64,000 nt of DNA from Candidatus Heimdallarchaeota archaeon (GTDB lineage: Archaea > Asgardarchaeota > Heimdallarchaeia > JABLTI01), in the NCBI GenBank assembly GCA_019056785.1, contig DXJV01000029.1, forward strand, positions 32,001 through 96,000, written 5' to 3'. The notes beneath the pieces were generated by a model that was not told where the DNA came from, ran no database searches, and worked only from the letters and a program-made list of their open reading frames with translations. Numbering within the stretch: position 1 is the first letter of the stretch; each line of letters begins with the position of its first letter. Of the stretch, positions 36,134 through 46,117 are shown piece after piece. Made by a program: the position numbers and the translations under genes.

Positions 36134-38512
36134 TTGTCTAATGAAAAAAATGAAGAAGTCGAAAAAACAAATTCAGAAGAAAATTTGACAGAAGAACCAG
36201 TAGAAGCAAAAGAAGCAAAAGAACCAAAAGAAGAAGAGATTGAAACAGAAGAAACCAAAGAGGAACTAGAGATACCAGAGATACCACTAGAGGAAAGTTC
36301 AGAAGAAGAGATAATTGAAGTAGCAACACCAACAGAAGAACCCGAGGTAGAAGAACTCCCAAAAGAAGAATACAGCTTTGAAGCAAAGAAAGCTAAACCT
36401 GTCAAAAAGAAGAAGAAAAAAGGGCCGCCATTTCTACTCAGCACTCTCATTGGTTTAGGCGTGGCCTTATTAATTGAGGTGCTATTCTCCATACCACTTT
36501 GGGTTGGAGGTGTTGGCAGACCAGACCTGTTTTATATAGAACTCGTACTTGTACTTATAGCGATGAGCATCCCCGGATTGTTTACCCGAAGCCTTCAAAA
36601 AGGGATCCTTGGGGCGTTCATGATTTTCATTGTAGCATTTGCTGTTCCATTACTACTCACAGTGCTTGGCTTAAAAGCCATTCTCAGTCCCCTCACACCG
36701 CTTTTTGCAAGCACTGACTTTTCGCTTGATGCATTTCAGATATTCAAATCGCTTTTCCCTGCATTAGAAAATTTGCCAATAGCACAAATCCAAAAATGGA
36801 TCTGGATAGTCGACCTTGTGCTAATGTTCATCCTGACAATCTTTGTTGTGGTGATTATAACAGCTTTGATCAAAAGCATCACCAAGAAAAAGAAGAAAGT
36901 TGGGACATGGATTGCTATTCCATTGCTAAGTATTGGCTTGATTATTTTTGCAGTGTTCACACCAATTATCTTCTCTTCAACATATGGTATTATTCAAGCA
37001 AGTACATCATTTCTAGCCGGTGCCACAAAAATGCAGGAAGCCTATGGCGTCTTTGAGGGAACAGGTTCCACGCCAAGCACCCAGGCAATGGAATGGATGC
37101 AAAACAATTTATCAGAAGCCAATTATTGGTTAAATATTTCTCGAGTCAATTATAAAGGATTACAAAATATTGGACTAATTAGAATTGCCGTTCTGGTCTC
37201 AGGACAATATGGACCGTTAATAGAAGCAGGCGATCAGCTGGCCTTAGCAACAATGGCAATGACTGGCATTTTACTGCCACTTTTTACCGGGATTTATGAT
37301 TTAACTCAAAGTTTAGAAAATGCCACGAATGACATGGCGAATTTCGGTTCCTCCTCGAGTGCAACGAGTGCAAAAAATGTTCTCACCCAACTTTCAACTA
37401 AAAGTTTAGAAGATATAGACCAACTGAAAGAGGACATTATTCGCGCTATTGAAGGGCTTGATAAGGCTGAAAATGCCCTCAATATTATTCAGCAACGAAT
37501 TGCCCAACAAGATATACAAGGATCTTTTGATGAAGTTAAAGCAAAGTTAGAGAGCATTAATATTGCCGAACTTCCAGCCAAGGTGGGCGATATCATAAAC
37601 GAGATTCGAGTTCGTTTAGACCAATTCGACGGGCAATTAGAAGGATTTGTAAATTTCATAAGTTATACAGCTGATAACTTGGAACCAACAAAGAAAATCC
37701 TCTGGGCGTCTTATAATACTATTGTGGGAAATGAATATTTAAAACTCAGACGATTTAAGAATGCTGCAGATGCCTTTACCTATGCTTACCAAAATATTTC
37801 AGCAATAAGTGGTATTGCCACATACACACCAACCGGCAATCTTACAAACATTTTTGCAGCAGCTATAACGGAAGATTTCACCTTCCTGTTAAATGACCTT
37901 ATAGGGATAATGTCACCACTCTTACAAGAAGAGATTGCATTCGCACAAACCTACGATGAAATAACAAAAATTATGCGGGCCTTTGCAGCTGAAGCGGATA
38001 TCTCTCAAGTTGATTACTCGTCTCTAAGTACACCACTTGCAACAGCAAACAGCACAGATGTCTATGGTGCAATAGCACAAAGTGCTCTCGATGCTTTCAG
38101 AACCAAACTTCAAAATACAACCTTTGGCTCGATGTTCAACAACATCGGCACACGTTTTGATAAGATTCTCACCGATGACTTTAGACCGCTCGAATTTGGG
38201 ATCATGACGAAGTTCATGGGGACAATTGTTGCATATTATTTAACCAGCTGCGAAAGCTATGCTAACCAATATTTCACAGAAGCAATTAACAACATAACAA
38301 TCGCCGATAATATTATGACAAACGATCTTTTACCCATTCTCAACGTCAATGATCCTCGCTATCTTCAAGACTATTATAATAATTGGTCTCTTGCTCTTGG
38401 AGAACTTAAGATAAAAATGGAGACATACAACACTCCCGCAAACTATAGCAATGGGCTTACTGCAATACAGGATACAATTCTAGTCCTTTATGCAAATGTT
38501 GAAGAAAAATAA
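36134..38512 (+). CDS. Large hypothetical membrane protein
   Basis: Glu-rich N-terminus, a poly-Lys patch, about 6 TMs and a ~500-aa helical C-terminal region. Confidence 0.8.
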   Translation: MSNEKNEEVEKTNSEENLTEEPVEAKEAKEPKEEEIETEETKEELEIPEIPLEESSEEEIIEVATPTEEPEVEELPKEEYSFEAKKAKPVKKKKKKGPPFLLSTLIGLGVALLIEVLFSIPLWVGGVGRPDLFYIELVLVLIAMSIPGLFTRSLQKGILGAFMIFIVAFAVPLLLTVLGLKAILSPLTPLFASTDFSLDAFQIFKSLFPALENLPIAQIQKWIWIVDLVLMFILTIFVVVIITALIKSITKKKKKVGTWIAIPLLSIGLIIFAVFTPIIFSSTYGIIQASTSFLAGATKMQEAYGVFEGTGSTPSTQAMEWMQNNLSEANYWLNISRVNYKGLQNIGLIRIAVLVSGQYGPLIEAGDQLALATMAMTGILLPLFTGIYDLTQSLENATNDMANFGSSSSATSAKNVLTQLSTKSLEDIDQLKEDIIRAIEGLDKAENALNIIQQRIAQQDIQGSFDEVKAKLESINIAELPAKVGDIINEIRVRLDQFDGQLEGFVNFISYTADNLEPTKKILWASYNTIVGNEYLKLRRFKNAADAFTYAYQNISAISGIATYTPTGNLTNIFAAAITEDFTFLLNDLIGIMSPLLQEEIAFAQTYDEITKIMRAFAAEADISQVDYSSLSTPLATANSTDVYGAIAQSALDAFRTKLQNTTFGSMFNNIGTRFDKILTDDFRPLEFGIMTKFMGTIVAYYLTSCESYANQYFTEAINNITIADNIMTNDLLPILNVNDPRYLQDYYNNWSLALGELKIKMETYNTPANYSNGLTAIQDTILVLYANVEEK

Positions 38513-38561: not shown

Positions 38562-39380
38562 TTAATCAGTTTCTTCTGCTTCTAGTTCTGTTATGGGGTA
38601 GAAATAGCGCCGCTCTTTAAGGTAACCACCTAAGAGCCCTCCAGTAAATGCCATTATCGAAAACAACAAGAAAAAGAGTATGGAATTGAAGACTAATTCT
38701 GTTAGAGTTTCCCATTCTCTTGAAAAGAATGCCACAAATAAGACAAAAATCAATATCACTGACACAAAGGAAGCTATTATACCGAATTTCCTTTCTCCGG
38801 CAATCAGTCCGCCTACAAAACCGGCAATAATAAATCCAATCAACAGGATAATTAAACCAACAATATTACCGCCATTGGGGATAGCGGATTTAATGATGCC
38901 AATGAGGAAGTAATAGGCAATAAAAAAGAGGCCAATAGTTACCATAGAGGTTATTGCTCCTGAGAGCGTTGAAATCACTGTGCGAGCAGCAACTGTTCCC
39001 TTGAGTCGTTCAACAAGAACCTCATCAAATGTTCTAAAGGGAGAAACATCTGTTGTGGAATCCTTCAAGATGTCCTCGTATTTTTGTCTAAACATCTTCA
39101 GAATGTCAAGAAGAGTTTTGTTTATAAGAGGTTCGTAGTCCTTGGAATGGCAAATGGCAGCAATAATGAATCGGTCATCTGTTTTATAAGCGAGCTTTCT
39201 ATCAAGTCCTTCAATAGCTGAAATATCAACTAACCCCGCTTCACTTGAGAAATTACGAAAAGCAAGCAAGAGACCAGAAACGAGTTGTTCATCAATGGTT
39301 TTTTCTTTAGACTCGTGATACCAATCATAAATACAAATGCCACTATTTAAATCGATGATCCATACATTTTCAATTGCCAA
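38562..39380 (-). CDS. Longin-like domain fused to a 4-TM membrane domain
   Basis: VWII..SGICIY, DEQLVSGLLLAFRNFSSE and FRQKY...F..FD form a longin pattern, followed by four TMs. Confidence 0.75.
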   Translation of the reverse strand: MAIENVWIIDLNSGICIYDWYHESKEKTIDEQLVSGLLLAFRNFSSEAGLVDISAIEGLDRKLAYKTDDRFIIAAICHSKDYEPLINKTLLDILKMFRQKYEDILKDSTTDVSPFRTFDEVLVERLKGTVAARTVISTLSGAITSMVTIGLFFIAYYFLIGIIKSAIPNGGNIVGLIILLIGFIIAGFVGGLIAGERKFGIIASFVSVILIFVLFVAFFSREWETLTELVFNSILFFLLFSIMAFTGGLLGGYLKERRYFYPITELEAEETD

Positions 39381-39594: not shown

Positions 39595-40008
39595 ATGGAA
39601 TTAATCGAATGTACTAAAGTACATATACAAGATGCTTTGAATTCACCAATCCTCCCACAAAATGTTAAGAACGATTTAAAAGATTCCGGAGAAACCTTTC
39701 TTTCAGTTTATAGTAAAAAAAGCAAGTCACTTCGATTTTTCCCCATTAAGGACGAAAATATTTATTGGCTTAAAATTGCGATTGATAGTTTTAACCCTGA
39801 AATAAGCGGGAAAATCCTCGCAAAATTAAGTAGCCTTATCTCTCAATTTGTTTATTCAACAGGTGTCTGTGTTTCGAAAAGTGAATGCTTTTGGGATGGA
39901 ATTATTCTCGAGTCAGCATTTAAGAATTCAAAAGAAAATCTCATCAAAACGCTTGAAGAAATACCCAATGTCATCAATGTCACATTAAAACCGGTCGCCA
40001 AAGAATAA
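39595..40008 (+). CDS. Hypothetical protein, possible ACT-like C-terminus
   Basis: GGAGA SD; the C-terminal pattern LEEIPNVINVTL is ACT-like. Confidence 0.6.
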   Translation: MELIECTKVHIQDALNSPILPQNVKNDLKDSGETFLSVYSKKSKSLRFFPIKDENIYWLKIAIDSFNPEISGKILAKLSSLISQFVYSTGVCVSKSECFWDGIILESAFKNSKENLIKTLEEIPNVINVTLKPVAKE

Positions 40009-40064: not shown

Positions 40065-40496
40065 CTAAATGTCCATTTCTTTAATTCTATTTACCAAGAA
40101 ACGATTCATGACAATCCAATATTCAACTTCAGCTGTTTTACCTGCATCTATTATCTCGTGAAGCTTTGCAAGGTGATTTGGGTCAGTCGGTTTCGGAATA
40201 GAAAGTGTCTCGTACGTTTCATTATCCATTACTGACATTTCCTCACCTTCTAAGGAAATTACTTGTGCGTTGCGTTTGTCAATTATTGGTACTTGAACTT
40301 TTGCAGTAGAAGGCATAACTGGTGATCGCTTCTTTTTATCAAAAAGACCAATAACTTCCATTCTTATTTTCGCATGACCATGTTTGCCGGTTTTTGAGTG
40401 GCTCAAATCTAGGACCTGACATGGTTCTCCATCAACAAGTATATAACTTCCTCTTTTGATTGAATTTGCATCAGCCGGTCGTGTTGACATTTTCAT
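40065..40496 (-). CDS. eif5a: Translation factor aIF5A
   Basis: Hypusine loop SKTGKHGHAK; VPIIDKRNAQVIS. Confidence 0.97.
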   Translation of the reverse strand: MKMSTRPADANSIKRGSYILVDGEPCQVLDLSHSKTGKHGHAKIRMEVIGLFDKKKRSPVMPSTAKVQVPIIDKRNAQVISLEGEEMSVMDNETYETLSIPKPTDPNHLAKLHEIIDAGKTAEVEYWIVMNRFLVNRIKEMDI

Positions 40497-40685: not shown

Positions 40686-43616
40686 GTGATTGTTGTGCAG
40701 CAAGATGTTTGGCAAAAACGAACATTTTTCGGAGCTTTCCTCCTAGTTTCAGTAGCTCTTTGTCTAATTGCCACTCAATATACCGCTTGCAACAACATAT
40801 CAGCTTCCCTTTGGGATAAAGCACTACCAATGAGAGAGAGGAAAACTACCAATGCATTTCAAATGCTTGGGCCTTATTCTGCTGACAGTTTTATCACTAA
40901 TGGAGAGGAAAACGATGCCAATACCGGCGGTGATGCAGGAGACTCGATTGCTTTTGCAACAAATATCACAGAAGGAACGTATAATGGAACTTTAACCGAT
41001 GGTGATAAAGACTATTACCGATTTAATGTTAAAACAGGGGTTATTATTAATGTTTCAATGATCCCGTTGAATCTTTCAATTAATTTTGATTTGACATTAT
41101 ATTCGCCGGAGTCCAGCCCACTAATCCATGATTATAAGGATGCCGGCCTTCGCGAAACATTAATCTGGTCGACAGCAAGCTCAGGCAATTTCACCATCTC
41201 CATTCTCCCTACTACACCAAGTGATATTGGTAATTATAGTTTTACAATTATATTAACAGCACAAAATGACTTCAACACTCAAACAGATGCAGGAAACTCG
41301 TTCGGTGATGCCATTTTAATTACAAGTGGCTCATCTTATGGAAAATTGGTTGAAACTAGTGATACTAACGACTTTTACAAGATTGCAATCCAAAAAGGAC
41401 AGATTATCAGCATTTTACTCGAGTCAGAAAACACAACTAATTTAGACCTTTATCTCCTTGACAAAGAAAGCGTCCAGCTTGATAGCTCGACAAAATTAAC
41501 CGGGGTCAACGAATCAATTTATCATGCCATTAATCAAGAGAACAATTATATTATTCAGATTGTTTTTATTGAATCGTCTATTGGAGAAGTAATTGTCAAT
41601 TACAATCTCACAATCAGTATTACCACCCAAAATGACGGCAATTCTGGCACTGATGCTGGGGACAATGTTGACGATGCTCTTTATATTATCCCCCTAAGCG
41701 ATTCGAAATTCAAAGGGCGCGTTGTATATAATGGCGATAGAGCAGATTTTTACAAGTTTGACGTCACAAAGCCTACCAATATTATTGCCGTATTATTAGT
41801 TGACGATTTAGTGAATCTGGACTTGAAACTTTATGATGTGAACAAAGTATTATTGTATTCTTCAGAGGAAGAGTACCCCGGTGCAACAGAAGCAATTACA
41901 GATGTGATCCTCAACAATGGAACTTATTACATTTCCATCGAATTTGTTGCTTGGGAAGTGGGGGTTCCACTCACAGCCACTTACACGCTAAATATCGGCT
42001 TGTTGCCGCTTGGGAATAATAATGGAAACCAACACACTGCGGGGGAGATAATTATGATGGTCATAACATATGGTGTATTACCAATTTTTCTCATAGTAAT
42101 TATTATCCTGTTGCTCTATGTCTTTACAGACGTTAAAATACCCGGAATCTCTAATTGGCTTAACAAATATCTAAGTAAAGAGAACAAAGGGGAAACAGTC
42201 AAATCACTAAAATATGCCTTGAAAGTTCGAGAAGAACAAATAAACACACTTCGAGAAGAATCAATACAAAAAGATGCAAAACGCGCCAAGGATTTAGAGA
42301 CAATTCATCGCTTAGAAGAGGATCAAAAGTCAAAGGAAAAAGTAATTGAAAAATTGCGAGAAGAGAATAATACAATGAAAAGAGATTTGGACAATCTCGC
42401 CGTAGTCAGTGAAGATTTAGCGAATATTATTGATAGCACTATTCGAAGGCAACTAGCAAAACAAAATACAAATAAAGTAAAAATCTCCACGATTACATCA
42501 CTCCTTTGGCTGCCGGAAGAACGATTGATAAATTATCTCCATTCTGTTAAATTATTAAGTGAGCGTTATATCTTTGATAAAAACAAAAATTACATTATAA
42601 CTCGAGAGTATGCTCGTGAAACTGTCCGGCAAGCATACTGGAAGCGGGTTGGAGCAATGCATCTAAAGAAGATAAAGCAGGTTAAAATTTCTAACCTTGC
42701 AGATGACACGAACATTGATATTGACACTTTGAAAGGAATCATTCGGGAATTAGTCGAACGAAAAGAAATACCTGCACCAATTCACATGGACCGGGTGTCA
42801 CTCTTATTGTCTATTTCAGACGAACTTATTGCCGAGCTTGCTGAGGTTGCACAAAACACCCCGGTAATTTCGCTAAAAGAGCTTTCCGAGTCTTATGATA
42901 CTTCTTGCGAGAGTGCGAGAGTTATCCTCCAAAAAATCGCAGAAGAAGAATACACCAAAGGTGAATTTATTAGTGATGATATCTTCATCGTCTACGACCT
43001 TTTTGCGAAGAAAATTATCAAAGAAGGAAGCATCGAACTTTCAAAATTCATTAAGGAGAACAAACTCGAAAATTTGCTCGAAGAAACCAAGATCATAATC
43101 GAAAAATTGATTCAAGCAGGTCAGCTTGAAGGTGAATATCTAACAGAAGACATGTTCCTCTGCTTCAATAACCTTACAGAGCCCGTAAAGAATCTAATAA
43201 AGGAAAGTATTGAAGACATTCGAAACGGAAATACCCGCAAAGTAGTCTTTGATATCGGGAGTGTTGTTGAATCAATTGTAAAAGAACGCTTAATCTTAGA
43301 CATCCATGAATTTGACGATGTTGATAAACTACCAAAGTATCAAGAAGTAATTGAAGCAAAAGAACTGGGACGTATTTTACGAGCAGCAGAAGACTGTAAG
43401 ATTACGTTGCCAGCGAATGTTGAGTTAAAGTCTCTCAACAGATTTTGGGCTCAGAAAATTAAACATACAAAACCTGGAGAACTCCCCTATAACCCAACAA
43501 TTAAAGAAGCACGTGAATTCTTGTTTGAAGCTAATAAAGCATTGAATAAACTTCTCGAGCAAAAAATCCCCAAGAATTGGAAGAAGAAAATAGCAGCAAA
43601 ACTAAGCAAAGATTGA
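40686..43616 (+). CDS. Single-pass receptor-like protein: 3 PPC-like extracellular repeats, TM, coiled coil, winged-helix array, HEPN-like C-terminus
   Basis: Signal-like N-terminus; three (Q/E)NDxNxxxDAG...DxYxF/I repeats; one strong TM; a heptad-rich segment; repeated wHTH patterns; a C-terminal helical bundle. Confidence 0.8.
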   Translation: MIVVQQDVWQKRTFFGAFLLVSVALCLIATQYTACNNISASLWDKALPMRERKTTNAFQMLGPYSADSFITNGEENDANTGGDAGDSIAFATNITEGTYNGTLTDGDKDYYRFNVKTGVIINVSMIPLNLSINFDLTLYSPESSPLIHDYKDAGLRETLIWSTASSGNFTISILPTTPSDIGNYSFTIILTAQNDFNTQTDAGNSFGDAILITSGSSYGKLVETSDTNDFYKIAIQKGQIISILLESENTTNLDLYLLDKESVQLDSSTKLTGVNESIYHAINQENNYIIQIVFIESSIGEVIVNYNLTISITTQNDGNSGTDAGDNVDDALYIIPLSDSKFKGRVVYNGDRADFYKFDVTKPTNIIAVLLVDDLVNLDLKLYDVNKVLLYSSEEEYPGATEAITDVILNNGTYYISIEFVAWEVGVPLTATYTLNIGLLPLGNNNGNQHTAGEIIMMVITYGVLPIFLIVIIILLLYVFTDVKIPGISNWLNKYLSKENKGETVKSLKYALKVREEQINTLREESIQKDAKRAKDLETIHRLEEDQKSKEKVIEKLREENNTMKRDLDNLAVVSEDLANIIDSTIRRQLAKQNTNKVKISTITSLLWLPEERLINYLHSVKLLSERYIFDKNKNYIITREYARETVRQAYWKRVGAMHLKKIKQVKISNLADDTNIDIDTLKGIIRELVERKEIPAPIHMDRVSLLLSISDELIAELAEVAQNTPVISLKELSESYDTSCESARVILQKIAEEEYTKGEFISDDIFIVYDLFAKKIIKEGSIELSKFIKENKLENLLEETKIIIEKLIQAGQLEGEYLTEDMFLCFNNLTEPVKNLIKESIEDIRNGNTRKVVFDIGSVVESIVKERLILDIHEFDDVDKLPKYQEVIEAKELGRILRAAEDCKITLPANVELKSLNRFWAQKIKHTKPGELPYNPTIKEAREFLFEANKALNKLLEQKIPKNWKKKIAAKLSKD

Positions 43617-43648: not shown

Positions 43649-46117
43649 TTACGAATAAATGTAAGTTAATTTTCGGCGGTTCTGTAAACGCATAAGAAGC
43701 CGCTCAATAAATGAGAGGGACGGTTTATAAAGAAGAGCAATAGTATCCTCATATAGATAGAGAAATTCTATGCGGTTCAATTTTATTTCCATGATCTCAT
43801 CAAGCGTTTGTAAAATAAGTGAATCTTCTTTTACATCGGTAACGATCCCTTTAGCAAGAGTATCGAGGTCATCCTTAGTCTGAAATGCAGCCGGTTTCCC
43901 TTTAAGATACTCAATAAGCGAACGCTGCTCCTTTTCATGGTCTTTTTTAATATAAACATCAAAAGGTTTGAATGCTACAATAAATTCATTACCAGCGAAG
44001 GTTTCAGAGCGTTTGCCAGTCACAATCAATTTCGAATCACCGAAATTCTTTTCAGCAAATTCTATGGCAGTTAATTCAGCTAGACGTGTGATGCCCTTTT
44101 GTGCAAAGAGTATAGCTTTCCCTTCGACAGATTTTAGATAGGAAAGAGGAATGCCAGGAACTGAGAAGTCTTTTATTTCCAGACCATTATTAGAAGTGAG
44201 CTCTGCTGTGAAAGCGAATTTTCCTTTTTTAGTGGTGATTTCTTTAATAGTAACAATCAGACCATTTTTCAAAACCTGTTTCTGACCTACTGCCATTTCA
44301 AAAATGTTGTAATCACTTAACAAGAGTTCTTTGGGCCCCTCCGGAGTTTCAAGAGTCAAAGTGAGAGGAGAAGTGATCATATTCGAAAGAGCAATTTTCT
44401 TCACTTTTCCGGTATAAAAGATTGCCTTGTCTGTTTTTGAAATTGCTACAACATCTTTCTTTTCAAAATATTTGTATTGATAAGAAAGATGAGACAATTT
44501 GTCATAATTTTTAATGCCTGTTTTTGGATATTGCTCATTAAAGGTCGCATTTATGATTGGTGCAACTTTGGAACGGACAGCTTGAAGCTCTTTAACAAAA
44601 CGTTTTCGCACACCAGGTAAGATCAATAGAAAAGGTAAAATTGCTGCTTTAAATGGTCGAAGTTTTTCTTGCTCTGTAAGTGCAACCACGCGATAGGCAG
44701 ATTTAGGATGGCTGGCAATGAGATTAATGAAGTTCTCCGTCCAGCTGGGGTGGATATAATTTTGATACATATTTCGTCCGGCATCACCTAAAAAGCGTAA
44801 TTTTTCTGCTGAAGTTTGTTCTTTGTTAGTTAAGAGATAAACACTTAGACCCATTTCGCTGGCAATGCCTTGATAAAAGCCATCAAGTTTGATTAGCGAT
44901 TTTGCCAGTGCAGAACCAAAACCAGCTCGCATAGTATAATTGTCTGCTCGCCCTTCTAGGAAGCGGATAAAGACATAGGAAAAGGCCAGCAAAGCGATAT
45001 TATAAAGATAATACCAAAGGAAGTCCAAACCAACATTTGGATTAAAAATATAGTCAAGTGGGGTTGCAGGAAGTTGTATGGCTTTGGTGATAGCAAACGT
45101 AACAGCCGAAATAACCATTAGCCAGAGAGTATGGACACGCTTTGAATGAGCCAACTCATGACCGGCAATACCACGGATGTCATCATCACTGAAATTGCTG
45201 AGATCTTTAGCCATGAAGGCAATGCGTTTATCAAAGAAAGCACCAAAGGCAAAAGCATTCAAAATTGGCGCTTTAACTTCCCCAACGCGCACCTTTCCAC
45301 GAATGTTTAATTTGGTCTTTACTTCTTCTACCAACTTTAAAATGCGCTCGTCTTTAACTTTCTTAACACCAAAAAAAACATGTAACAACGGACCCGAGAC
45401 GAGATATAATAGAATATTTGTACAAATCATGATCTCGTAGGTTCCAAAAGAAGCGAACAAAACACGTTTTCCAACTTCTTCGGGCACACCCGGAAAGCTA
45501 AAGTTAAGCCCCTTAGCACCTGCAAAACGATAGAGGATGAAATAGGATAAAGCAAACAAAAACAAATATATGACTTGAGGGGAGGTCAGCCGAGAGACCA
45601 GGAGGAATCGTCGCCCAAAGAAAATCAAACAAAGAATGATAAAGACATAAATGAAAATATTCCAAGAAATGCCAAACCACTGCTGTCCGGTAAGACCCCA
45701 ATAAGGCACTTGCTTAGGATGAGTAACCCAGGGAAAGTGTGTCCGGGCATGCCATTCTAACACAACCATAATAAAACGGCCACCTAAAACCACCATATAA
45801 GAGATGAGGGAGGCCAGCATTAATTCTCGCCAGACAGGACTTTGACGAATGGTCCAGAGCGAGTAAATCATAAGCCAACAGAGAGCTGCCAAGATGGCAA
45901 GGAGTGCATCCCGAGTGATTCCTTGAATCAGTCCACCTATGACACCTGCAAGAAGCATCATGAAAAGGTCCGGTTCATTCTTCTGAGTGAGAATAGAATA
46001 TAATTCAGTTAACATAAAAATGCCACAAAAAATAGCTATGGCATAACCCGTCAATGCAGGCAAATTTTCACGTGAAAACCAGCCACTTAAAACATCCATG
46101 AAAGCATTAAGATACAT
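43649..46117 (-). CDS. M48/HtpX-family protease with extra N-terminal TMs and C-terminal beta-barrel repeats
   Basis: LNAFA, GHELAH, EGRAD and ASHP motifs; 822 aa. Confidence 0.88.
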   Translation of the reverse strand: MYLNAFMDVLSGWFSRENLPALTGYAIAIFCGIFMLTELYSILTQKNEPDLFMMLLAGVIGGLIQGITRDALLAILAALCWLMIYSLWTIRQSPVWRELMLASLISYMVVLGGRFIMVVLEWHARTHFPWVTHPKQVPYWGLTGQQWFGISWNIFIYVFIILCLIFFGRRFLLVSRLTSPQVIYLFLFALSYFILYRFAGAKGLNFSFPGVPEEVGKRVLFASFGTYEIMICTNILLYLVSGPLLHVFFGVKKVKDERILKLVEEVKTKLNIRGKVRVGEVKAPILNAFAFGAFFDKRIAFMAKDLSNFSDDDIRGIAGHELAHSKRVHTLWLMVISAVTFAITKAIQLPATPLDYIFNPNVGLDFLWYYLYNIALLAFSYVFIRFLEGRADNYTMRAGFGSALAKSLIKLDGFYQGIASEMGLSVYLLTNKEQTSAEKLRFLGDAGRNMYQNYIHPSWTENFINLIASHPKSAYRVVALTEQEKLRPFKAAILPFLLILPGVRKRFVKELQAVRSKVAPIINATFNEQYPKTGIKNYDKLSHLSYQYKYFEKKDVVAISKTDKAIFYTGKVKKIALSNMITSPLTLTLETPEGPKELLLSDYNIFEMAVGQKQVLKNGLIVTIKEITTKKGKFAFTAELTSNNGLEIKDFSVPGIPLSYLKSVEGKAILFAQKGITRLAELTAIEFAEKNFGDSKLIVTGKRSETFAGNEFIVAFKPFDVYIKKDHEKEQRSLIEYLKGKPAAFQTKDDLDTLAKGIVTDVKEDSLILQTLDEIMEIKLNRIEFLYLYEDTIALLYKPSLSFIERLLMRLQNRRKLTYIYS

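Follow-up and report, generated by a model that had tools for sequence, protein, structure and literature searches.

A putative membrane-anchored scaffold of a Heimdallarchaeon with a winged-helix array distantly resembling UFL1 and DDRGK1

Introduction

Eukaryotic UFM1 ligase sits on ribosomes of the endoplasmic reticulum, where UFL1 and DDRGK1 hold it in place. DDRGK1 is laid out as a transmembrane helix, a long charged helix and a winged helix (WH), and the same order is found in the protein described here, which is encoded by an open frame of 976 codons (40686–43616, + strand) on a 64,000-nucleotide stretch of DNA from Candidatus Heimdallarchaeota archaeon (assembly GCA_019056785.1, contig DXJV01000029.1, positions 32,001 to 96,000; hereafter the window, to which all coordinates refer). 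We call the 976-residue product (P0001) the receptor. It shares with the DDRGK1 (UFBP1)-UFL1 scaffold of the UFM1 E3 ligase (PDB 8b9x, 8ohd, 8qfc, 9gy4, 8c0d) a membrane anchor, a long charged helix, serial PCI-type WHs and a helical C-terminal domain (CTD). The eukaryotic assembly, however, is built from two chains whereas the receptor is one chain with only four WHs; the receptor has a large ectodomain of PPC repeats where DDRGK1 has none, and its CTD alone does not match that of UFL1.

Ufm1 homologs have been reported in nine Asgard clades (PMC12962969) and E3-UFM1-ligase-like domains have been shuffled in Asgard multidomain proteins (Liu et al., bioRxiv 10.1101/2020.10.19.343400). A UFM1-independent origin or role of UFL1 and DDRGK1 in Asgard archaea has been proposed, the two being descendants of Asgard proteins older than UFM1 (Picchianti et al., 2023; PMC10183829), and the receptor bears on the archaeal role of such proteins. 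Our preferred reading, to which we give a probability of roughly 45%, is that the receptor is a dimeric, single-pass (type I), membrane-anchored docking scaffold, a platform of the UFL1/DDRGK1 class that would work without UFM1 tagging. This reading agrees both with the UFM1-independent origin proposed for these proteins and with the domain shuffling known from Asgard archaea.

Results

The receptor is a real, uncharacterised surface protein. An identical protein is on record (P0002) along with homologs in about 40 clusters that are 62–89% identical, the named ones being hypothetical proteins of Heimdallarchaeota or of an Asgard group archaeon. The first codon of the gene is GTG, and a second GTG three codons downstream at 40695 may be the true start, since the closest homolog begins there. 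An earlier sequence-only reading of the window had described a signal-like N-terminus, three PPC-like repeats, one transmembrane helix, about four WHs and a C-terminal bundle. Pfam, hydropathy and AlphaFold2 (AF2) modelling confirmed this architecture, with a charged stalk between the membrane helix and the WHs and a bundle of seven helices as the CTD, and the sequence strings quoted in that reading (GSVVESIVK, LGRILR, TIKEAREFL and others) are all present in the translated frame. The AF2 model was built on a 17-sequence alignment and had a pLDDT of 81.

The modelled WH array was most similar in structure to UFL1. A Foldseek search of the PDB ranked UFL1 on the 60S ribosome first (8ohd_A, E = 1.3e-6; 8qfc_B, 2.1e-6; 9gy4_E, 9.3e-6), with the engineered DDRGK1-UFL1 fusion 8b9x in ranks 4–5 (3–5e-5, up to 5.1e-5), ahead of SelB (1.6e-3), RPC62 and ESCRT-II. 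The WHs of the receptor span all four WHs of the fusion, with 225 of 255 residues aligned. When the ESM Atlas was searched by shape, first place went to an archaeal (Promethearchaeota) cluster of 788 aa (TM-score 0.38, 232 residues aligned), in which PCI and E3_UFM1_ligase occur in every member and DDRGK in 97%; the second and fourth rows were eukaryotic UFL1, interleaved with SelB, and YeeR came after. For profile comparison, families were gathered from genomes and aligned by hhalign with a profile of the receptor tail (A2) or of its end domain (A3). The tail matched a Loki-type zinc-ribbon family of DDRGK/UFL1-like WH proteins (Prob 69%, E = 4.4e-5, 221 columns) and a family of 283-aa UFL1-like scaffolds from the genus of the receptor (Prob 70%, E = 4.1e-5), both from shallow alignments with Neff ~1.8, and the two families matched each other at Prob 97% (E = 1.7e-10). 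Reversed and ten column-shuffled versions of the receptor-tail alignment reached Prob <0.5% (score 13–20) against the Loki-type family, and the receptor tail reached Prob 2% (score 23) against a Heimdall Vps22/EAP30 (ESCRT-II) tandem-WH family. The Foldseek ranking, the Atlas ranking and the hhalign contrasts together argue that the array stands nearer to the UFL1/DDRGK class, compared with at least one other class of tandem WHs. The likeness to DDRGK1 and UFL1 that the sequence-only reading had pointed out is in this way supported by models and alignments, the array being a probable distant relative of the UFL1/DDRGK class that fails the curated family models.

Both Asgard multi-WH families (the Loki-type proteins of ~720–800 aa, Liu et al. 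and Picchianti et al., 2023, and the 283-aa scaffold) probably fall, by hhalign, into the same tandem-WH class as the receptor (Prob 69–70%, E ~4e-5), and all three are Asgard-specific. The two comparators, however, are soluble with no transmembrane helix, carry zinc ribbons or no extra domain, have no PPC ectodomain, stalk or CTD, and have Pfam DDRGK or UFL1 matches that the receptor does not; the tie of the receptor to them is also much weaker than their mutual tie. The soluble GTPase SelB has SECIS RNA as its ligand. Its C-terminal WH1-4 (PDB 1lva, 2uwm) also form four tandem WHs and are the second-best structural class, but their Foldseek E-value was about 1000-fold weaker than the best for UFL1 and no sequence relation to the receptor was detected. 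A language-model search of the WH region gave no usable match, sequence searches with the A2 and A3 profiles against PDB sequences returned nothing, and six-frame genome searches with the DDRGK and UFL1 models did not match the receptor gene.

Within the array (all features of the receptor lie on the + strand), WH1 (residues 596–640; 42471–42605), WH3 (residues 713–769; 42822–42992) and WH4 (residues 770–826; 42993–43163) show an H-E-H-H-E-E pattern by DSSP of the AF2 model. WH1 is basic, with a net charge of +4, WH3 is acidic and of PCI type, and the WH of the homolog P0042 equivalent to WH4 matches Pfam PCI with 26.4 bits. The basic linker helix and WH2 (residues 641–712; 42606–42821) were modelled at low confidence (pLDDT 42–62 for WH2) and gave a weak Pfam PCI match over residues 659–700. 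They are the best-conserved block of the WH region and one of the two conservation peaks of the protein (residues 646–705, 0.81–0.93 identity per column), and in the hhalign comparison with the Loki UFL1/DDRGK-like family WH2 behaves like any other WH. The PCI model (PF01399, cut-off 22 bits) scored 10.6 bits on the receptor itself and matched 8 of 17 family members at E ≤1 (best 1.9e-6). It was matched over the WH part alone, and no TPR-like helical repeats precede the WHs in the AF2 model. Charge is split along the tail, WH1, the linker helix and the CTD being basic (pI 9.2–10.3) and WH3 and WH4 acidic (pI 4.1–4.7).

The second place of the RNA-binding SelB arrays and the basic WH1, linker helix and CTD would suit a membrane-tethered regulator of nucleic acids, with WHs that contact DNA or, in the manner of SelB and Roquin, one particular mRNA, and a CTD that is a non-catalytic HEPN-like domain of MtlR or Roquin type. 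Such a protein may work while still anchored or once proteolysis has released it, and a possible protease is the product of an 822-aa M48 (HtpX-like) gene (43649–46117, − strand; peptidase domain at residues 255–482, with a long extension of unknown fold) that every ortholog locus examined has 32 bp downstream. That gene is convergent and not co-transcribed, however, and the collinearity of the block gives its adjacency little weight. PCI-type WHs usually mediate protein contacts, the acidity of WH3 and WH4 does not favour nucleic-acid binding, and DNA-binding WHs of DtxR, BirA and MntR type matched no better than PCI ones, so we regard a regulator of this kind as unlikely.

Three further observations concern tandem-WH proteins. 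The same genome encodes a soluble 283-aa tandem-WH protein (contig C41, L005:1066-1917, + strand; PF09743 at 24.9 bits and a weak PCI match), which was found in 10 of 10 other genomes of the genus and, with the same query, in 0 of 40 Heimdall genomes outside that genus. We regard it as a candidate soluble partner or evolutionary source of the WH array. A 2308-aa protein (contig C18, L016:589-7515, + strand) has N-terminal TPR repeats and, in the six-frame search, a stretch towards its C-terminus that is marginally E3_UFM1_ligase-like (22 bits); it bears no other annotation. In rows 8–9 of the Atlas search the bacterial inner-membrane protein YeeR (E. coli CP4-44 prophage) matched the shape of the receptor tail (TM-score 0.31–0.32, 183–191 residues aligned), a model-based match that hints at membrane-anchored tandem-WH proteins in bacteria also.

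The seven-helix CTD (residues 832–976; 43179–43613) has a HEPN-like topology in the AF2 models and a pLDDT of 80 when modelled alone. ESMFold2, run with controls, predicted it to form a symmetric homodimer (ipSAE 0.52, 0.47 and 0.46 in three runs; best of three controls 0.01), and the runs shared at least 87% of contacts with a partner pLDDT of at least 85. Of solved structures, 20 of 30 homodimers and 1 of 23 monomers came up to the mark applied to this dimer, counts that are only rough because the prediction used an alignment of our own. The confident interface consists almost wholly of invariant residues, namely R851, F855, D856, S859, V860, E862, S863 and K866 of helix 2, E893, and the loop K926-H927-T928-K-P-G-E-L-P934; their formation of the predicted interface would explain their invariance. 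The predicted pairing fits a HEPN-type dimer, and it favours the dimer idea of the sequence-only reading.

The strongest conservation peak of the whole protein lies in the same domain (residues 916–930, 0.96), with N918, R919, Q923, H927 and T928 invariant. It contains an invariant R919-x3-Q923-x3-H927 motif at the end of helix 5 (43440–43466), of which H927 is part of the predicted interface and R919 is not among its confident contacts. The sequence-only reading had called the spacing from Arg to His non-canonical; R919-x7-H927 is indeed outside the canonical HEPN Rx4-6H catalytic motif, though most of 12 DUF4145 domains taken from Heimdall genomes read R-x3-N-x3-H and have the same spacing. 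The CTD resembles DUF4145 (PF13643) and the minimal HEPN domains ST0689, AF_0298 and TT1696 in size and helix order; these give its best-covering structural matches, and in them too the third core helix ends with a conserved Arg and, eight positions on, a conserved His, after which come a loop and another helix. It differs in having Gln for the conserved Asn, extra helices at both ends and no significant profile similarity.

The HEPN-like tail claimed in the sequence-only reading could not be established by these comparisons. HEPN proteins recur among the best-covering structural matches at Z ≤7.8, which is within noise for helical bundles, Foldseek found no PDB match to the isolated CTD model (best E = 0.75), and HEPN-clan Pfam families gave no match at E ≤1 in the 17 receptor-family members. 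Membership in DUF4145 was rejected at the level of profiles, hhalign giving Prob 2.8% and a forced global alignment setting the motifs two residues out of register. Language-model neighbours of the CTD include DUF4145 and HEPN_RnaseLS clusters at 0.82–0.85, values below 0.9 that count as leads only. HEPN is a reasonable guess for the fold, at about even odds, and not a membership. A likeness to the CTD of UFL1 was also rejected, UFL1 not being among the listed structural matches to the CTD model. Separately, positions 43–79 of 83 of the PF24409 profile (wHTH-PRTase_assc) match CTD residues 903–938 (43395–43502) in 14 of 17 members, with a best E of 4.2e-7 and 27.0 bits in P0042, equal to the cut-off. 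At E ≤1 this profile matched every genome tried, mostly through its N-terminal part.

The logic that the sequence-only reading proposed for the receptor recalls that of Ire1 and RNase L (sensor, dimerisation and KEN/HEPN RNase), in which a ligand-sensing domain, a single transmembrane helix (as in Ire1) and a C-terminal helical pairing domain with invariant Arg and His are combined. A nuclease of this kind would have a PPC ligand drive pairing of stalk and CTD, so that R919 and H927 of two chains form a composite HEPN site that cleaves RNA at the membrane, for example on ribosomes held by the WHs. The five invariant residues of the conservation peak, the spacing shared with the HEPN-clan DUF4145 domains, the language-model neighbours and the position of H927 and its loop inside the predicted interface are what such a site would lead one to expect. 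Against these stand the failure of every Pfam HEPN family to match, the hhalign result for DUF4145, the non-canonical R-x7-H, the missing R919 among the confident interface residues and the sub-threshold language-model scores. The receptor, moreover, has no kinase or pseudokinase domain, the HEPN membership of its CTD is unproven, and Ire1 and RNase L are absent from the listed structural matches to the CTD. We judge a nuclease improbable, to the same degree as the regulator above.

Near its N-terminus the receptor has a hydrophobic segment found in a hydropathy scan (residues 11–36; 40716–40793), which is a signal peptide or an N-terminal anchor. Between this segment and the transmembrane helix, and so in an extracytoplasmic position, lie three PPC repeats, which Pfam PF04151 matched in three stretches with 43.4 bits against a cut-off of 25.9. 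Repeat 1 occupies residues ~73–192 (40902–41261; six-frame match 41004–41201, E = 1.9e-5) and has an Asp-rich NDxxxGGDAG start, repeat 2 residues 193–314 (41262–41627; six-frame match 41367–41561, E = 1.1e-4), and repeat 3 residues 315–440 (41628–42005; best stretch residues 353–418, six-frame match 41742–41939, E = 1.1e-5). An Asp-rich NDxxxxxDAG motif opens all three repeats. With a net charge of −32 the ectodomain is acidic, and it holds 11 N-x-S/T sequons against 7.1 expected, compared with 2 against 2.9 expected in the cytoplasmic part.

A single transmembrane helix (residues ~454–481; 42045–42128) has a hydropathy maximum of 3.0 and keeps its position in all homologs. It is followed by a charged helical stalk (residues ~495–595; 42168–42470), the end of which is visible as a helix in the AF2 model. 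Residues 505–592 are 44% charged, and the stalk has no Pro or Gly beyond residue 502 and holds an invariant KRAKDLE...LEED block and a DLANIIDSTIR block. The sequence-only reading had described a coiled coil here. The heptads are only weak (hydrophobic residues at 14 of 26 a/d positions, equalled by 72 of 2000 shuffles), so the stalk could be a coiled coil or a single charged alpha-helix.

The receptor family was narrowly distributed. A phmmer search with the tail against 1.84 billion representative proteins returned two clusters and no more, each belonging to the receptor family. When 400 Asgard genomes were searched with the A2 and A3 profiles, the gene turned up in 9 of 10 further genomes from the GTDB genus of the receptor and in none of the ~390 others. 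In the one genome of the sister genus the first 357 residues, PPC repeats included, lie at a contig end adjoining aIF5A, and an absence from that genus was rejected as an assembly break. The family spans at least one GTDB family of Heimdallarchaeia and was found in only one among the Asgard genomes searched. No paralogs of the tail or ectodomain were found in the same genome. Two apparent variants were also discarded: a 487-aa protein (P0043) considered as a soluble form of the receptor is a contig-edge fragment, and an in-frame TGA in the ortholog of genome G082 is simply a stop codon.

Identity to three orthologs increased along the chain, from 47–51% in the ectodomain to 58–64% in the transmembrane helix and stalk, 61–71% in the WH array and 65–75% in the CTD, compared with 75–83% for aIF5A and 73–79% for neighbouring hydrogenase subunits of the same orthologs. 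The cytoplasmic part is 61–75% identical across the genus, and the ectodomain evolves faster. The PPC repeats are 33–35% identical to those of proteins of 1000–1700 aa (P0044–P0051) with caspase (PF00656) and CUB (PF00431) domains, and the ectodomain is therefore a shuffled extracellular module; other surface proteins of the same genome also carry PPC repeats in the six-frame search.

A mobile module of this kind, shared with large secreted caspase/CUB proteins and other surface proteins, and an ectodomain that evolves faster than the tail would also be expected of a structural or adhesion protein with no signalling role. Its glycosylated PPC domains would join the envelope or bind a substrate or partner cell, and its WHs would merely anchor it to the cytoskeleton, to ESCRT or to the soluble 283-aa WH scaffold of the same class, which accompanies it in each of the 10 other genomes searched in the genus. 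A mere anchor, however, is not expected to keep a 490-residue tail at 61–75% identity with invariant motifs, and we hold an adhesion protein to be as improbable as the regulator and the nuclease.

Discussion

As a docking scaffold, the receptor would bind a ligand or surface outside the cell through its three acidic, sequon-rich PPC domains, possibly with Ca2+, by analogy with PPC and collagen-binding domains. The single transmembrane helix and the ~100-residue charged stalk would lead the chain inward to four PCI-type WHs of the UFL1/DDRGK1 class, and then to a CTD that would pair two chains. The block of basic helix and WH2, together with the rest of the array, may keep a conserved partner from the cytoplasm close to the membrane; the example of DDRGK1-UFL1 suggests a ribosome or an RNA, and otherwise it could be a protein. 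The CTD dimer would set or report a pairing state governed by the ectodomain. The architecture, the WH class, the predicted CTD dimer and the narrow distribution come from the analyses above; ligand binding, the identity of the partner, signalling and any ribosome- or RNA-directed output are inferred.

Several points weigh against this scaffold. The Pfam models DDRGK (PF09756) and E3_UFM1_ligase (PF09743) did not match the receptor even at E ≤10, and among the 17 family members they matched 0 and 1 (E = 3.4e-5), respectively. Taken singly, the WHs fit generic PCI WHs at least as well as they fit UFL1. The flexibility of the WH array keeps TM-scores to UFL1 low (0.22–0.38), and the UFL1 likeness therefore rests on local 3Di and profile scores, of which the ~70% hhalign probabilities derive from very shallow alignments (Neff ~1.8). 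The CTD dimer is a model prediction. Genomic context gives no functional clue and indicates no partner gene. Ufm1, UFC1, UFSP (Peptidase_C78) and DDRGK had no Pfam match in the genome itself, but this is only 82.5% complete and the UFC1 and Peptidase_C78 searches matched no control genome either, so the absence of the UFM1 parts is not proven. Confinement to one GTDB family argues for a lineage-specific fusion and not for an ancestor of DDRGK1.

The boldest combination, a kinase-less counterpart of Ire1 and RNase L on a UFL1/DDRGK1-type platform, which would dock membrane-bound ribosomes or mRNAs through its WHs and activate a divergent HEPN RNase by ligand-driven pairing, is very improbable; if true, ribosome docking by a UFL1/DDRGK1 scaffold would be older than UFM1 tagging, and a signal from outside the cell would have been linked to it. 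In the receptor, an array of the UFL1/DDRGK1 class is joined to an ectodomain, a membrane anchor and a predicted pairing domain, and its host, closely related to eukaryotes, seemingly has no UFM1 tagging. The soluble 490-residue tail of the receptor, with two sharply conserved surfaces, offers an expressible handle on what a pre-UFM1 scaffold binds. This significance is limited by the narrow distribution, a sign of domain shuffling within one lineage more than of ancestry.

Genomic Context

The receptor gene is monocistronic, with a divergent neighbour on one side and the convergent M48 gene on the other. As the sequence-only reading had stated, the divergent neighbour is aIF5A (40065–40496, − strand; Pfam IF5A-like_N, 70.5 bits), which lies 189 bp upstream and has an intact hypusine-site motif. 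The same gene order was present in every ortholog locus examined, including that of the sister genus, in a block that also holds a group-3 hydrogenase operon and three more genes of unknown kind. Where aIF5A was examined in three other Heimdall families, its neighbours were quite different and included no receptor-like gene. The linkage to aIF5A was thus kept within one family and absent from the others; the block is fully collinear among close relatives, so this linkage says nothing on function, and it was rejected as a functional clue, the two genes also being divergently transcribed.

Three other proteins encoded in the conserved block have no Pfam match. A 137-aa protein (39595–40008, + strand) is soluble, and a 792-aa protein (36134–38512, + strand) has a Glu-rich N-terminus, several transmembrane helices and a large outside domain. 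The third, of 272 aa (38562–39380, − strand), has a longin/roadblock-like N-terminus followed by several Gly-rich transmembrane helices, and is conserved in the collinear block including that of the sister genus (L084:2328-3155).

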